Shown: positions 2,614-48,762 of the stretch, one piece after another
Layout: each line of letters opens with the position of its first letter
How positions within the stretch are numbered: position 1 is the first letter of the stretch
Source: Escherichia coli
Lineage (GTDB): Bacteria > Pseudomonadota > Gammaproteobacteria > Enterobacterales > Enterobacteriaceae
DNA length: 64,000 bases
Strand: one strand, 5' to 3'
Assembly: GCF_003790525.1 (NCBI RefSeq)
Contig: NZ_CP033635.1
Program-made: the position numbers and the translations under genes
Notes under the pieces: model-generated
Databases searched by the model: none
The model's input: the letters and a program-made list of their open reading frames with translations, nothing else
Told to the model about the DNA's origin: nothing

Positions 2614-2751
2614 TATTGTGGCATTTTTCGGTTTTCAGGGGTAATGGTTTTTCTGTTTCTGGAAAGCGGCTCGCAATAACGTTTTCTGGCTGTGGGGTTT
2701 TCTCGCAACAGAAGAAACATCATTGCGTAGTAAAAGACAATGCACGCAGGC

Positions 2752-3033
2752 TTATTGCGCTGGTGGCCATTGCAGGGCGGTATGTAAAACACGCAGTACC
2801 GAGAGCGTATCGCCCTCCACTTGGTAGATCAGCACATAATGCGGCCTGACAACGGCTTCATGTGTACCAGCGACTCGTCCGGCCCGGTACATCTCCGGGC
2901 GTTCACAGGCCTGTTCCGCAATGGCTTCAAATTGATTATCAAGGGCTATTGCCGCTAGCGGATTATCTTTACTGATGTATTCCATGATTTGCTCCCTGTC
3001 AGACAGGGACATTGGCTTCCATTCCAGACGCAT
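2752..3033 (-). CDS. Type II toxin, ParE/RelE superfamily (93 aa)
   Basis: MRLEWKPMSLSDREQIMEYISKDNPLAAIA...HYVLIYQVEGDTLSVLRVLHTALQWP has the length and conserved pattern of ParE/RelE toxins; its ATG overlaps the stop of the upstream ORF by 1 nt (TAATG). Confidence 0.8.
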   Translation of the reverse strand: MRLEWKPMSLSDREQIMEYISKDNPLAAIALDNQFEAIAEQACERPEMYRAGRVAGTHEAVVRPHYVLIYQVEGDTLSVLRVLHTALQWPPAQ

Positions 3034-3473
3034 TAATCCCCCTTCAGCAAGGCTTTTTTACGGGCAGCAAATAGACTTTTGGCCTCTTCATGAGAGAGCG
3101 CCGGGCGTGGATCGTCAATGGCGGCCTGTACCTGTTCACGAAACCAGGCGTCATACGCGGCAGCTTCATGAGCTCGTTTTAATGCCTCTGCCCTGTCTGG
3201 TCGGGTCGTTTTCTTCTGACCGTCCGGGTCGTAATGAGAGGCGTCGACTTCAAACCGGGCAATACCAACATCTTTCAGGTAGTTGACAACCGTTTCCAGC
3301 CGTTTAAACAAGCGAATTTGCCGACTGCGTTGTGCTGCAAGAGGCCGTTCAGTGTGGCCGTATTTCACGGTCAACGACCAGCCTCCCTGGGTGCCAATAA
3401 CGTGTGCTGCATCCACTACGCCAGATTCAACCAGTTTATGTAAGGTTGAGTGATCGATCGTTTCTGGTGCCAT
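3033..3473 (-). CDS. Putative cognate antitoxin (146 aa) with a ParD/PaaA2-like C-terminal tail and an unassigned N-terminal domain
   Basis: ATG start with AAGAGG ribosome-binding site 8 nt upstream; C-terminal ...YDAWFREQVQAAIDDPRPALSHEEAKSLFAARKKALLKGD resembles the W-x-R...DPRPA tail of ParD/PaaA2-type antitoxins (from memory); translationally coupled to the toxin. Confidence 0.65.
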   Translation of the reverse strand: MAPETIDHSTLHKLVESGVVDAAHVIGTQGGWSLTVKYGHTERPLAAQRSRQIRLFKRLETVVNYLKDVGIARFEVDASHYDPDGQKKTTRPDRAEALKRAHEAAAYDAWFREQVQAAIDDPRPALSHEEAKSLFAARKKALLKGD

Positions 3474-3501
3474 AATGCGCTAACCTCTTTGTATACGGCA
3501 T

Positions 3502-3563: not shown

Positions 3564-3604
3564 CCAGGATAAAATTGCGGTAGAAAGAGATTTGTTGCGA
3601 ATAT

Positions 3605-3621
3605 GCCGGGCATCGCCCGGC
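3605..3621 (-). terminator. Hairpin just downstream of rhlE stop (7-bp GC stem, 3-nt loop); possible terminator
   Basis: gccgggc-atc-gcccggc located 9 nt after the rhlE stop codon; no strong U-tract. Confidence 0.35.
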
Positions 3622-3629
3622 ATAAAAGA

Positions 3630-17834: not shown

Positions 17835-18824
17835 TTAGCCACCAATGTACGATAAGTTTTGCGTAATACCGGTGTTGTTTTGATGCAGGAAATGGGTCTG
17901 TTTTTTCTCCCGCAGCGCCGCTGAAATACGCGCTTCCAGCGCCTGTTGCTGGGTATCGTCTTCCAGCAGATCGCGCAGGTTAACGCCGCCTTCACCAAAC
18001 AGGCAGAGATGGAGTTTACCAATGGAGGAAACGCGCAGGCGGTTGCAAGTGGCGCAGAAGTCTTTTTCATACGGCATGATAAGGCCAATCTCTCCGGCGT
18101 AATCCGGATGACAAAAGACTTGCGCGGGACCGTCGCTGCGTTGACGTAATTGGTGGATCCAGCCGCGACGCAGTAGCTCGTCACGCAGAACCTGACCAGA
18201 GATGTGATGCTTACGGAAGAGCTCGCTGCCCTCGCCCGTTTCCATCAATTCGATGAAACGCAGCTGGATAGGGCGATGCTGGATCCAGTTCAGAAAGGTG
18301 TCGAGCTGATGATGATTAACATCACGCATCAGCACGGTATTGACTTTGACCTTCTCAAAACCGGCCTCAAATGCAGCATCGATTCCTGCCATGACCTGGT
18401 TGAATTTATCCTGCCCGGTAATGGCATGAAACTGGCGGGCGTCCAGACTATCAACGCTGACGTTGATGCCAGTAAGTCCAGCATCGCGCCAGTTCGCCAC
18501 ATCGCGTTCCAGACGGTAACCATTGGTGGTGACAGCAATCTGGCGGATAGCGTCGTTTTCTCGCACAGCGGCGATGATATCGGTAAAGTCGCGGCGTAAA
18601 GACGGCTCACCGCCCGTCAGACGGACTTTTTCGGTGCCCAGACTGGCGAAGGCGCGCGTAACCCGGCGAATTTCATCGACGGTAAGAAAGCCTTTATTGG
18701 TGACGCCGCTCGGTTTGTAGCCATCCGGCAGGCAGTAGGTGCAACGAAAGTTACACACATCGGTAATCGACAGGCGCAAGTAGTAAAACTTACGCGCAAA
18801 TGCATCAGTCAGTTGTGAAGCCAT
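17835..18824 (-). CDS. moaA: GTP 3',8-cyclase MoaA (radical SAM, 329 aa)
   Basis: [31 protein letters not shown]... (CxxxCxxC motif); track ORF extends 27 codons upstream from a TTG into the leader; coordinate uncertain by +/-1. Confidence 0.94.
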
Positions 18825-18825
18825 G

Positions 18826-18965
18826 TACACCTTTCCAGATACGGGAGGCGAAGTCATTTCTTCCTTCGCCCTGGTGGCAATCTTTACGAGCATTGTCACG
18901 GCCAAAGCACCGTATCAGTTGACCCAGGTGCAGAGGCTAGAGTGTTTAGTGGTTAAGCCGATACT
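18826..18965 (-). ncRNA. Molybdenum-cofactor (Moco) riboswitch in the moaA 5' leader
   Basis: Structured GC-rich leader immediately upstream of the moaA ATG; position matches the known E. coli moaA Moco RNA element; boundaries approximate. Confidence 0.55.
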
Positions 18966-18999
18966 AGCGTGTAAATGAGATTTTTACCATCCACACTTT

Positions 19000-19023
19000 C
19001 GCTATGTAATCATGTATATAGCG
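19000..19023. promoter_or_regulatory. ModE-type palindromic operator (CGCTATGTA-N6-TATATAGCG) upstream of moaA
   Basis: cgctatgtaatcatgtatatagcg; TAYAT half-sites in inverted arrangement as in ModE sites. Confidence 0.5.
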
Positions 19024-19160
19024 TCATGATCGTGCTATTTCGCTACAGAATAAGGGAAAATGGCGGTTTTACTTTGATATACATCATCAGGAAGGCATAG
19101 CGTACATCGTCCTTTAGAGGTAGAAGAAAATAGTTTGTATCCTCAATATTGGCAGGTTAA

Positions 19161-20129
<969 letters not shown>

Positions 20130-20130
20130 C

Positions 20131-20159
20131 ACGAAGCCGGAAGAATATTCCGGCTTCGT
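20131..20159. terminator. Perfect 11-bp-stem hairpin between convergent ybhK and uvrB (candidate bidirectional terminator)
   Basis: acgaagccgga-agaatat-tccggcttcgt. Confidence 0.4.
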
Positions 20160-20166
20160 CATCTTG

Positions 20167-22188
20167 TCACGACGCGGCAATAAACAGCTCACGCAGCTGA
20201 TGCAACTGGTCACGAATTTGCGCCGCTTCTTCGAACTCCAGATTCTGCGCGTGTTGCATCATCAACCCTTCCAGTTCATGGATCTTCTGCTGCAACGCTT
20301 TAGGCGACATATCCATCGGCACATTATCTGGCTCAACAATCGGGCGCGATTTTCCTCTGCCCTTCGCTTTGGTTTTGGCAATGTTCTGCCCCAGCGCCAG
20401 GATATCGACCACTTTCTTGTTCAAGCCTTGCGGCGTAATGCCGTGTTCCTCGTTGTACTTCTGCTGTTTCTCGCGGCGACGTTCGGTTTCGCCAATCGCT
20501 TTCGCCATTGATGGGGTGATCTTATCGCCGTAGAGAATCGCTTTACCGTTAACGTTACGTGCCGCACGACCAATGGTCTGGATCAACGAACGTTCGGAAC
20601 GCAGGAAGCCTTCTTTGTCAGCGTCGAGGATCGCCACCAGCGACACTTCCGGCATATCCAGACCTTCGCGCAGTAAGTTGATCCCTACCAATACGTCGAA
20701 CTCACCCAGACGCAAGTCGCGGATAATCTCCATACGTTCGACGGTGTCGATATCTGAGTGAAGATAACGCACGCGCTCACCGTGTTCTTCGAGATATTCA
20801 GTGAGATCTTCCGCCATCCGCTTGGTCAGAGTTGTAACCAGTACGCGTTCGTTAATTGCCGCTCGCTGACGAATCTCCGATAGAAGATCATCGACCTGTG
20901 TCGCTACCGGACGCACTTCAATAATCGGGTCAAGTAAGCCTGTTGGACGCACCACCTGATCCACCACATCGCCGCCGGATTTTTCCAGCTCGTAATTACC
21001 CGGCGTCGCCGAAACATAGATGGTTTGCGGCGCTAATGCTTCGAACTCTTCAAATTTCAGCGGACGGTTATCCAGCGCTGATGGCAGGCGGAAGCCGTAC
21101 TCCACCAGCGTCTCTTTACGCGCCCGGTCACCGCGATACATGCCGCCAATTTGCGGAATGGTAACGTGAGATTCATCGACGACCAGCAGCCCATCGGCAG
21201 GCAGGTAATCAAACAGCGTCGGCGGTGGCTCACCCGGTCCACGACCGGAGAGGAAGCGCGAGTAGTTTTCAATCCCCGAACAGTAGCCCAGCTCGTTCAT
21301 CATCTCCAGATCAAACTGGGTACGCTGGGTCAGCCGCTGCTCTTCCAGCAGTTTGTTGTTTTCCAACAGCACCTTGCGTCTGGCAGCCAGTTCTTCTTTA
21401 ATTTCTTCCATCGCCTGCACAATGCGCTCGCGCGGTGTGACGTAGTGCGTTTTCGGGTAGATGGTAAAACGTGGAATAGTGGAAACAATCTGCCCGGTGA
21501 GCGGATCAAATAACGACAATCGTTCCACTTCCTCGTCAAACAGTTCCACGCGAAGTGCAATGTCATCCGATTCTGCCGGGAAGATGTCAATCACCTCCCC
21601 ACGAACGCGGAAAGTACCGCGCTGGAAGGCTTGATCATTACGAGCGTATTGCAGCTCCGCCAGTCGACGCAGGATCGCGCGCTGATCGATAATCATACCG
21701 ACCGTAAGATGGAGCATCATCTTGAGATATAAATCAGGATCGCCCAGACCATAAATCGCGGAAACCGATGCCACCACAACCACATCACGCCGCTCCAGCA
21801 TCGCTTTGGTGGCGGACAAACGCATCTGCTCGATATGTTCGTTTACCGAGGCATCTTTCTCAATGAAGGTGTCGGAACTCGGTACATAGGCTTCCGGCTG
21901 ATAATAGTCGTAGTAGGAGACGAAATACTCCACCGCGTTTTCCGGGAAGAATTCTTTCATTTCGCCATACAACTGGGCCGCCAGCGTTTTGTTGGGCGCA
22001 AGTACCATGGTAGGGCGCTGAAGGTCAGCAATGACATTGGCAATGGTGAAGGTTTTCCCGGAGCCAGTCACGCCAAGTAACGTCTGGTGCGCCAGGCCAT
22101 CTTCCAGCCCCTCTTCGAGACGTCGAATCGCCTCTGGCTGATCGCCAGAAGGTTTAAAAGCGGAATTCAGTTTGAACGGTTTACTCAT
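20167..22188 (-). CDS. uvrB: Excinuclease ABC subunit B UvrB (673 aa)
   Basis: ORF track 673 aa, [28 protein letters not shown]..., Walker A GVTGSGKT. Confidence 0.97.
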
Positions 22189-22264
22189 GAGTCGCTACCT
22201 GAAGGAGTTGGGCGGGCAGGTATGTAATTTTACTCGTCGTACTTAATTATGCCAACAAATTATA

Positions 22265-22280
22265 CTGGATAAAAAAACAG
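22265..22280 (-). promoter_or_regulatory. LexA box of the uvrB promoter (CTGTTTTTTTATCCAG)
   Basis: ctggataaaaaaacag on the top strand, about 80 nt upstream of uvrB ATG, next to TATAAT-like sequence. Confidence 0.65.
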
Positions 22281-22584
22281 TTTCTCACCATAATATTTCT
22301 GTTACAGCGTAAACTCCGCTGTCAATCATGAGCAAAATTTACTCTGTGGCGAGATAAAACTCCGGCCTTACCGGGTTATCCCCAAAGCAACGGCTTTTTT
22401 AACATTTGTCAAGATGATTGATGACAGTTTTATGGCAAGAGATGCCTGTTCAGTGACTGCCATTGCAATTATCTAACCTGTTAAAAAATAAAAAATATTT
22501 CTTTGAGCCGTCTTTAACGCCAATTCGCGTGCAAGCCGCGTATTCTCTCGCTTGCCTCGTGTTTTCTAACTCTAATACACATGG

Positions 22585-22608
22585 TTATCCACAGGAATAG
22601 TGGATAAC
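22585..22608. promoter_or_regulatory. Pair of inverted DnaA-box-like 9-mers (TTATCCACA / GTGGATAAC) in the distal uvrB promoter region
   Basis: ttatccaca ggaata gtggataac. Confidence 0.45.
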
Positions 22609-29716: not shown

Positions 29717-29760
29717 AAAAAGAAAACCCGATAGTCTGAACCATCGGGTTAATGAAACTG

Positions 29761-29788
29761 GGCGCTATATTTCATAGCGCCTTTTTTT
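29761..29788 (+). terminator. Rho-independent terminator after ybhC (stem GGCGCTAT/ATAGCGCC followed by a T7 tract)
   Basis: ggcgctatatttcatagcgcctttttttac. Confidence 0.6.
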
Positions 29789-32048
29789 ACATCTGACGGT
29801 TTTTATTGAAGTTAATCAAACTACCCGCCTTGATAATCTCGCGCTCTTCGGCCGTCAGGCTTTCCATGTAAAGCGTAATTTCCGTTACCGGCGCATCTTC
29901 ATGGATCACATAACCTTTAAACGTCGTACCCGGATTATCCAGTGCCGCTTTAATGCCAGGGATGTAAATGTAATCCCCCACTTCAAAGGTTGGCGCTTCC
30001 GCCATCTGCAGCGGTAACATCCCCCAGTTGATGACGTTAGAACGATAGCGTTTAGTCGCGTACTCCTCGGCAATATTCGCCAGACCGCCAATCACACGCT
30101 GACAACTCGCCGCCTGTTCACGCGCAGAACCATCGCCTGGTTTCACCGCATAGACCATACTGCCAATTTCAGTTTGCAGCGGATCAATATGCTCCTGACC
30201 AGCAATCTGCTTAATGCGCGCAAACACCTCTGTCAGCTCGCTGACATTTCCCGCCAGACGCTGATTTTCCAGCTCGGCAGTCGCTTTACTTCTGCCAACA
30301 TAACCTGGATCGCGGCGTGACAGAGTAAACTCCGCCAGACCAATCGGATTTGAACGATATGAAGAGGTTTCACCGGAAGGAATCAGTTCGTCGGTGGTGG
30401 TCACTTCGTCGAGGATCTTCGAGCACACTTTGAGGACGATATTGTCAGTCAGCGCACCCAATTCTGGCCAGTCTTTAATGTTCGGTCCGTAAATCAGCGG
30501 TTGCTGGGTCGCCCCTTTCACAAAGCCCTGATAAACACGGTTTTTATACGGCGTTACATCGAAGGCGTACTCCGGCACGTTGTCCCAGCAATCCAGCTCG
30601 CTGGCAGAGGTTAAATAGCCACCGTTTGCCGCAGTCGCAGCGATAGAACGAGCGTCCATCAACGCCACCGCTGACATCTGCCCATTAGCTGGCTTAGAGC
30701 CTTCGCGGTTCGGGAAGTTACGCGTGGTGTGGCGAATACTCAAACCGTTATTGATTGGTGTATCGCCCGCGCCAAAGCATGGGCCGCAGAACGCGGTTCT
30801 GATGATTGCGCCTGCGCCAATCAAATCTGCTACCACACCTTTTTTGGCGAGATCCATAAACACGGGCTGTGATGACGGGTAAACCGCTAACGAGAAGGTG
30901 TCATTGCCACAGGATTGACCGCGCAGTGCATTCGCCGCCGCGATGACGTTTTCGTAGTTACCGCCAGAACAGCCCGCGATAATCCCCTGCTGCACTTTCA
31001 GGCGACCGTTTTCGACTTTATCCAGCAGCGAGAGTTTGGCTTTACCGTGCGCCACGCGCTCGGACTCAATTTCAATCTCACGCAGAATGTCGGTCAGGTT
31101 CTGGTTCAGCGTGTCGATTTCATACACGTTGCTCGGGTGAAACGGCAGCGCAATCATTGGTTTGATGGCGCTTAAATCAACGCTGATGCAGCCATCGTAG
31201 TACGCCATCGGTTGAGGGTTAAGCTGGCAGTAATCCTGGCCGCGACCGTGCAGCGCCAGCCAGTTATGGACTTCTTCATCGGTTTGCCAGACAGAACTTA
31301 AACAGGTCGTTTCAGTGGTCATCACGTCAACGCTGTTACGGAAATCGGTAGAGAGCGCAGCAACACCGGGACCTACGAATTCCATCACTTTGTTTTTGAC
31401 GTAGCCGTTTTTGAACACGGCACCGATGATAGCCAGCGCAACATCCTGTGGCCCCACATACGGCGCAGGTTTTCCGGTCAAATGCACCGCAACAACTCCC
31501 GGATAGTCGATATCCCAGGTGTCATTAAGCAGCTGTTTTACCAACTCACCGCCACCCTCACCGACTGCCATTGTCCCTAATGCACCGTAACGGGTATGGC
31601 TGTCTGACCCGAGAATCATTTTGCCGCCGCCCGCCATCATTTCACGCATATATTGATGGATGACCGCAATATGCGGTGGCACAAAAATACCGCCATAACG
31701 TTGCGCTGCCGATAAGCCAAAAATATGGTCATCGCCATTAATAGTACCGCCGACGGCGCAGAGTGAGTTATGGCAGTTGGTCAGCACATACGGCAGCGGG
31801 AAACGTTCCATACCGGACGCTTTAGCGGTCTGTACAATACCAACAAAGGTAATATCGTGAGAGGCTAATGAATCAAACTTAATTTTAAGTTTATCCATAT
31901 TACCAGACGTATTATGAGAAGAGAGAATAGACCAGGCAATAGTGCCTTTTTTGGCTTCTTCTTTTTTAATTTCACCGGTGAAATGTTCTTCGGCAATTAT
32001 TTCGTTATTACTGGCGAGAAACACGCCTTTTTCAGATAACTTGATCAT
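29787..32048 (-). CDS. ybhJ: Aconitase-family protein YbhJ (753 aa)
   Basis: [25 protein letters not shown]...; start at the internal ATG of the 761-aa track ORF. Confidence 0.9.
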
Positions 32049-35929: not shown

Positions 35930-35969
35930 TACACCGGCGCAGGAGAGACTGCGCCGGGTAAATCAGCGG

Positions 35970-48710: not shown

Positions 48711-48734
48711 ACGTCATTCGTTTAAAAATGAGAA

Positions 48735-48762
48735 AGCCGACTGCAAGTGAGTCGGCTTTTTG
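48735..48762 (+). terminator. Rho-independent terminator after gpmA
   Basis: agccgact-gcaagtg-agtcggct followed by tttttgttt. Confidence 0.65.

Follow-up and report, generated by a model that had tools for sequence, protein, structure and literature searches.

The locus analysed here lies in a 64,000-nt stretch of Escherichia coli DNA, referred to below as the window, where the convergent genes ybhK (yvcK) on the plus strand and uvrB on the minus strand are separated by 37 bp (20130–20166). A single hairpin fills 29 of these 37 bp. The SMS-3-5 record NC_010498.1 shows 100% identity to the window over a 901-bp query around the site, and the RefSeq annotation of this identical record contains both yvcK and uvrB in convergent orientation. 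Both transcription units end at the gap: ybhK and moaA diverge, and uvrB, a nucleotide excision repair gene under SOS regulation, has bioD upstream of it. The hairpin is thus one element placed between two convergent genes, located in the 3′ UTR of both and transcribed from both sides. The genes and the parts of the hairpin are as follows:

19221–20129, plus strand: ybhK/yvcK coding sequence, 302 aa; stop codon TAA at 20127–20129, 1 nt before the hairpin
20131–20159, both strands: hairpin (palindrome) with a 12-bp stem and a 5-nt loop
20131–20142, plus strand: 5′ arm, ACGAAGCCGGAA, from direct reading and folding
20143–20147, plus strand: loop GAATA (UAUUC in the minus-strand RNA), from folding
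20148–20159, plus strand: 3′ arm, TTCCGGCTTCGT; haplotypes C and D read TTCCGGCTTTTT at the same positions, which forms a U-tract
20167–22188, minus strand: uvrB coding sequence, 673 aa; stop codon TGA at 20169–20167, 7 nt ahead of the hairpin as read on the minus strand

The original prediction described a gap of 37 bp between convergent ybhK and uvrB with a hairpin nearly filling the space between the two stop codons, and our location of the stops, with which RefSeq agrees, bears out this arrangement. The predicted hairpin sequence at 20131–20159 was recovered letter for letter: direct reading gives ACGAAGCCGGAAGAATATTCCGGCTTCGT, 29 nt that form a perfect palindromic hairpin. The stem is perfect as predicted; its length had to be revised from 11 bp with a 7-nt loop to 12 bp with a 5-nt loop, since folding pairs A20142 with T20148 and leaves GAATA as the loop. 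Six of the 12 pairs are G–C. Folding is near-identical from either strand, with a minimum free energy (MFE) of −20.7 kcal/mol for the plus strand and −19.8 kcal/mol for the minus strand, corresponding to z-scores of −8.2 and −6.5, respectively, against dinucleotide shuffles, none of which (0/200) folds as stably. Our own exhaustive hairpin scan of the 64-kb window returned two perfect stems of 12 bp or more with loops of 3–9 nt, where 100 first-order Markov simulations give an expectation of 0.03, and the pattern of this hairpin, with up to 3 mismatches allowed, occurs once (0.01 expected). The hairpin is far beyond chance.

A scan of positions 18800–22600 with the Rfam 15 covariance models, at E-values up to 10, returned no match at the hairpin. 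The only real match in this interval is the molybdenum-cofactor (Moco) riboswitch upstream of moaA (18812–18956, minus strand; RF01055, 103 bits, E 7e-26), a known element that RefSeq annotates as well. On the minus strand, a sigma-70-like match (GTGACA-17-TATTCT, 9/12) runs from 20170 to 20142, overlaps the loop and the 3′ arm of the hairpin and points towards ybhK antisense; it is probably a chance match, as the region holds 7 such matches versus 6.7 expected from shuffles. Between bioD and uvrB, some 400 bp ahead of the uvrB start, we observed a perfect 9-bp inverted repeat at 22584–22608 (GTTATCCAC-AGGAATA-GTGGATAAC) made of two DnaA-box-like TTATCCAC motifs; a distal uvrB promoter region is reported to bind DnaA. 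Elsewhere in the window, zitB (about 50720–51661) is a RefSeq pseudogene with an internal stop in SMS-3-5, the rhlE–dinG interval (about 2750–3475) carries a gene pair encoding a hypothetical protein and a RelE/StbE-family toxin, and a 10-bp GC hairpin is found just beyond this pair (3602–3624).

The stem-loop has the dimensions of an intrinsic terminator (stem of about 5–14 bp, loop of 3–8 nt, GC-rich), and its tails are poor in U on both strands (CAUCUUGUCA on the plus strand, GUUAACCUAA on the minus strand). A U-tract, taken as at least 5 U in the 8 nt 3′ of the stem, is absent on both strands (tails CAUCUUGU on plus and GUUAACCU on minus), as is a 5′ A-tract, and a consensus terminator scan did not call the hairpin. 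We further determined a d'Aubenton-Carafa-type score with trimmed stems, which combines the 1990 formula with modern energy parameters and has an approximate zero threshold, and used terminators within the window as positive controls (48733–48759, 53675–53701, 60215–60252 and the back-to-back pair in the ybhJ/ybhC gap, 29720–29790). The hairpin scores +2.0 on the plus strand and +3.4 on the minus strand, marginal values that derive entirely from stem energy, and the canonical terminators in the window score +22 to +39. The T-tail term amounts to 2.8–3.1 for the hairpin versus 4.3–5.6 for every canonical terminator in the window. All of the controls show the order A-tract, stem and U-tract, and their sites include the position just past the Lys/Val tRNA cluster and the REP-adjacent aroG/gpmA gap.

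The absence of a flanking U-tract on either side, which the original prediction had pointed out, was confirmed by the U-poor tails and the negative consensus scan. Its proposal of a bidirectional terminator survives in part: position and symmetry suit both convergent units, but as a canonical factor-independent terminator the hairpin is only marginal. Taken as a whole, the evidence fits classes of U-less hairpins better than a canonical intrinsic terminator.

Downstream of the hairpin, C exceeds G in the RNA that would be synthesized by read-through in either direction:

20160–20393, plus strand: ybhK-sense read-through RNA, antisense to the 3′ end of uvrB; C/G 1.3–1.85 over the first 230 nt past the hairpin; candidate Rho loading region
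19871–20052, minus strand: uvrB-sense read-through RNA, antisense to the 3′ end of ybhK; C/G 1.85–2.9 at 79–260 nt past the hairpin; candidate rut region

Across the window, C/G has a median of 1.0 and a 95th percentile of 1.69. The rut-like excess of C over G that marks the Rho-associated stem-loops of Dar & Sorek, to which we return below, is therefore present in both directions, though it is weak evidence here because the strand opposite a gene is often rich in C in any case.

For the K-12 allele, Rho-dependent termination of ybhK read-through has been shown (PMC7815308). The Rho termination region that Adams et al. report lies antisense to uvrB at 815186 (minus strand) and has a Rho score of 7.6 and p = 5e-9 (PMC7815308, supplementary file 2); termination occurs ~360 nt into uvrB on the ybhK-orthologous strand. 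It follows from this region that ybhK-strand transcription crosses the gap and is then stopped by Rho, in data that concern a different allele, composed of a decayed hairpin and a BIME. Antisense Rho regions are likewise found in K-12 at the neighbouring convergent pairs pgl/ybhD, ybhM/ybhN and ybhQ/ybhR (PMC7815308). No curated Term-seq 3′ end is listed for the K-12 uvrB–ybhK gap (Adams et al., PMC7815308), no Rho region is reported in K-12 for the uvrB direction, and a literature search found no Term-seq for B2/F strains, which carry the compact allele A described below. In the window, the convergent pgl/ybhD gap of 40 bp (35930–35969) contains a hairpin of its own at 35934–35957, with a 9-bp GC stem (CCGGCGCAG-GAGAGA-CTGCGCCGG) and no U-tract on either side; the K-12 Rho termination region antisense to ybhD is located at 799946 on the plus strand, with a Rho score of 6.9 (PMC7815308).

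Comparison across genomes distinguishes four alleles of the gap in E. coli, with gap sizes of 37, 146–152, 191 and 211 bp:

Allele A: compact 37-bp gap with the perfect hairpin; MFE −21.3 kcal/mol
Allele B: 191-bp gap with a hairpin copy right after the ybhK stop, then a 154-bp insert with two REPs (BIME); found in K-12, BL21, O157 and the majority of other E. coli, and also in E. albertii and cryptic-clade genomes
Allele C: GC-rich palindromic element CCCTCACCC...GGGGCGAGGGGA, then the hairpin core with CTTTTTC behind it; carried by SCU-482, cS51a and Z142-7
Allele D: hairpin copy, BIME, then a second, degenerate copy and CTTTTTC; found in E. coli E69

The compact gap is present in 1362 of 5426 complete E. 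coli genomes, about a quarter, and 1337 of the 5426 show 100% identity over 61 bp with the hairpin at the centre. Carriers of the compact gap include O25b:H4-ST131 and Nissle 1917, both of phylogroup B2; SMS-3-5 belongs to phylogroup F. Within the 5,426 genomes, the hairpin occupies a median of one and a maximum of two places per genome, at a sensitivity sufficient for a second 29-bp copy. Membership in a repeat family was rejected, the hairpin being single-copy both in the window and in the 5,426 E. coli genomes.

The stability of the hairpin differs widely between alleles. In allele B, the MFE is −14.4 kcal/mol in E. albertii and −10.7 to −15.1 kcal/mol in other variants, and in K-12 and BL21 it reaches only −7.9 kcal/mol with z = −1.0, no better than random; allele C gives −9.4 and −11.9 kcal/mol. 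Alleles in which a half-copy of the hairpin is followed by U5 make up a minority of strains. Haplotype C2 carries the core hairpin followed by CUUUUUC and attains a terminator score of +15.5 in the ybhK direction, so in some lineages this site probably worked as a canonical terminator of ybhK.

Outside Escherichia, the hairpin is absent from all 80 loci sampled. Where uvrB lies beside ybhK in other Enterobacteriaceae, the gap measures 3–865 bp (in some loci only 3–18 bp), is unrelated, and holds REPs or BIMEs, tandem CCCTCACCCC...GGGAGAGGG arrays, canonical terminators or almost nothing. The CCCTCACCCC...GGGAGAGGG palindromic unit is reminiscent of the enterobacterial 'box C'-type repeats; Lelliottia (L037), Huaxiibacter (L040) and Pseudenterobacter (L055) carry roughly six to ten copies of it. 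In these sequence comparisons the hairpin core is Escherichia-specific and lies within a hotspot of repeat insertion and rearrangement. No argument from deep conservation is possible, because the hairpin was not found outside Escherichia, and the hairpin is dispensable, since the commonest E. coli allele has essentially lost it and other Enterobacteriaceae use gaps of 3–18 bp or unrelated ones. Covariation among 11 hairpin homologues gave 77.5% of cells paired versus 78.3% in shuffles, with a single double change, from alleles that are too few and too related for this test. Conservation of the hairpin core is conservation of sequence.

As to the origin of allele A, descent from a D-like allele that lost the segment between its two direct copies of the core by deletion seems slightly more likely than a pre-insertion state. 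The outer stem of allele A, ACGAAG/CTTCGT, shows five differences from an albertii-like left arm (GGAAAG) combined with a C/D-type right arm (CTTTTT), all of which keep or strengthen pairing; such a pattern would fit selection on the stem and a single templated (quasipalindrome) mutation equally. Between SMS-3-5 and EcN, the gap shows 0 differences versus 34 in the flanking 864 bp, where third-codon-position divergence is 9.4%. The flank differences are uneven: 29 fall towards ybhK and 5 towards uvrB (434 bp). About 24 of the 34 differences between SMS-3-5 and Nissle 1917 cluster within 140 bp in the 3′ part of ybhK (19955–20095), a divergence patch that suggests a recombination mosaic ending just before the hairpin. 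The probability of zero gap differences is 0.026 at the pooled third-position rate and ~0.35 at the uvrB-side rate alone (a hand estimate from 4 third-position differences in ~145 codons). Because flank divergence is very heterogeneous, this signal is weak, and we treat the unchanged gap as only suggestive of conservation.

Starting from what was observed directly, namely the structure and position of the hairpin, the missing U-tract, the excess of C over G downstream and the allele frequency, we consider it moderately probable that the hairpin is a shared bidirectional 3′-end element of the U-less class for monocistronic ybhK/yvcK (plus strand) and uvrB (minus strand), which combines an RNA polymerase (RNAP) pause and an exonuclease block with release by Rho or by collision. 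Both RNA polymerases would transcribe the hairpin immediately past their own stop codons, and the same stem of 12 bp, at about −20 kcal/mol, would form in either transcript. With no U-tract behind it, the hairpin would by itself probably release RNAP poorly and would most likely represent a pause or roadblock site, and the stem would act as a stop for the 3′→5′ exonucleases PNPase and RNase II. RNAP that reads through could be released by Rho on the untranslated, C-rich antisense RNA downstream; head-on and trailing RNAP collisions might provide an alternative or additional route of release. We infer that the mature 3′ ends of both mRNAs lie at the base of the hairpin in allele-A strains, with an effect on expression. 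The decay of the hairpin to −7.9 kcal/mol where a BIME adjoins it, as in the K-12 type, was counted in favour of this shared 3′-end reading.

Three other explanations have to be weighed against it. The hairpin could be a genuine factor-independent bidirectional terminator whose strong stem makes up for the poor U-tract, for instance if it reached into the UUCGU segment and sheared the hybrid, with neither Rho nor collisions required. The best trimmed scores are indeed slightly positive, if driven by stem energy, U residues are scattered over the 3′ arm and tail (UUCGUCAUCUU and UUCGUGUUAAC), and the sister haplotype C2 reaches +15.5 in the ybhK direction with its core hairpin and CUUUUUC. We nevertheless judge such a terminator distinctly unlikely in view of the low T-tail term, the silent consensus scan and the behaviour of the ybhK strand in K-12, which, in a different allele, reads into uvrB antisense and needs Rho. 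Translation bears on the question as well: a terminating ribosome near the stop codon is reported to repress an intrinsic terminator almost completely (PMC4824070), and this is relevant because the 5′ arm of the hairpin starts 1 nt past the ybhK stop and 7 nt past the uvrB stop, where a ribosome at either stop can reach it. A different origin altogether would leave the palindrome without selected function, as a by-product of rearrangement (deletion between the direct core copies flanking the BIME, or templated quasipalindrome correction) that was carried along by B2/F clonal descent. In allele D of E69, direct core copies (AACCGGAAGAACATTCCGGC and AACCAGAAAAACATTCCGGC) do stand on either side of the BIME, and allele A looks like the left arm of one copy fused to the right flank of the other. 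Statistical covariation is absent, the hairpin is decayed in the majority allele and missing outside Escherichia, the identity among 1337 genomes could reflect shared ancestry, and patches of high divergence in the neighbouring 3′ end of ybhK form a mosaic that indicates recombination. The five outer-stem changes, all of which keep or strengthen pairing, are what selection predicts, but a single templated mutation predicts the same. However, a stem of −21 kcal/mol in both 3′ UTRs would be expected to impede exonucleases and to pause RNAP, so that an absence of effect is improbable even for an unselected palindrome, and we regard this explanation as unlikely.

It is also conceivable, if highly improbable, that the hairpin acts not as RNA but as a degenerate or miniature REP-type element or as a DNA-level site, either a protein-binding palindrome or an insertion target. 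Its core GCCGGA...TCCGGC matches the basal stem of the adjacent REP in K-12-type alleles (GCCGGATGCGGCGTGAACGCCTTATCCGGCCTAC), and its immediate flank has repeatedly taken up REP/BIME and other palindromic repeats. The resemblance is confined to the 6-bp GCCGGA/TCCGGC stem base, however, with no REP interior and no flanking CTAC/GTAG. The hairpin occurs at one place per genome and once in the window, with no dispersed family and no Rfam match, and both neighbouring genes end here, at a site where the sole promoter-like match is weak (9/12) in a region with matches at shuffle expectation.

A further extension of the shared 3′-end reading concerns E. coli of the B2/F type, roughly 25% of genomes with ST131 and Nissle among them, in which the ybhK–uvrB junction might constitute a lineage-specific 3′-end 'switch'. 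The BIME would have been lost, the U-tract terminator (CUUUUUC, still present in alleles C and D) would have been turned by paired substitutions into the symmetric U-less 12-bp stem, and termination would have moved from a unidirectional intrinsic/BIME mode to a bidirectional hairpin/Rho/collision mode. We offer this as speculation with little claim to being correct; if it were true, phylogroups would differ heritably in the level or stability of uvrB and yvcK mRNA. If the shared 3′-end reading is right, the hairpin shows once more that E. coli can finish two convergent genes lying 37 bp apart with no canonical terminator. The gap also provides a natural allelic series at one locus, comprising the perfect U-less hairpin, the decayed hairpin with BIME, the hairpin with U5 and, in other genera, no hairpin, and this series could serve to set intrinsic, Rho-dependent, REP-mediated and collision-mediated 3′-end formation side by side for the same two genes. 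The practical value is modest and no new question is opened; the allelic series is the only mildly interesting aspect. In the searchable literature, no paper ties uvrB, ybhK and a terminator, and this hairpin is undescribed there.

Several known systems allow the hairpin to be placed. The canonical bidirectional terminators in the window (53675–53701, 60215–60252 and 48733–48759) share its GC-rich stem, short loop and location at gene ends, but they carry A/T runs on both sides and score +22 to +34, whereas the ybhK–uvrB hairpin has no such runs and scores +2 to +3. The hairpin between pgl and ybhD likewise combines a short convergent gap with a U-less GC stem; its sequence differs and its stem is shorter. 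REPs between convergent genes have been proposed as dual terminators and stabilisers whose positions vary between strains (Harris et al., preprint 10.64898/2026.03.23.713779), and they occupy the same niche, as a two-REP BIME lies in the same gap of most E. coli. The ybhK–uvrB hairpin differs from REP/BIME elements in being single-copy, without REP consensus or CTAC, and in belonging to no repeat family. Terminal REPs show no global effect on half-life (10.64898/2026.03.23.713779), so any stabilising effect of such hairpins would be context-dependent.

In Rho-terminated mRNAs, the 3′ ends seen at steady state are immediately preceded by stable stem-loops, which shield against PNPase and RNase II and resemble intrinsic terminators in energy and size, with fewer U, no A-tract and a mild excess of C over G downstream (Dar & Sorek, PMC6061677). 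At the level of sequence, the ybhK–uvrB hairpin presents the same picture, a stable stem-loop directly behind the gene that lacks both a U-rich tail and an A-tract and has C over G downstream, and Rho termination is also documented on the ybhK-orthologous strand in K-12. It departs from that class in that one hairpin serves two convergent genes. For convergent genes, the Liu laboratory describes in a preprint hundreds of bidirectional terminators that 'do not resemble intrinsic terminators' (Wang et al., 10.1101/2022.10.23.513370). In these overlapping bidirectional terminators, which go back to Ju et al. 2019 as told in the same preprint and for which ynaJ–uspE is the model pair, a shared hairpin pauses or traps RNAP, and release needs head-on and trailing collisions (10.1101/2022.10.23.513370). 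The ybhK–uvrB hairpin resembles them as a single hairpin in a short convergent gap that operates on both strands and has poor resemblance to intrinsic terminators. The collision model predicts low efficiency for weakly expressed pairs (10.1101/2022.10.23.513370), and uvrB and ybhK are not known as highly expressed. In the features that can be read from its letters, the hairpin belongs with both the Dar & Sorek and the convergent-pair classes, and it adds one new member to a kind of element that is ordinary and has been described before.
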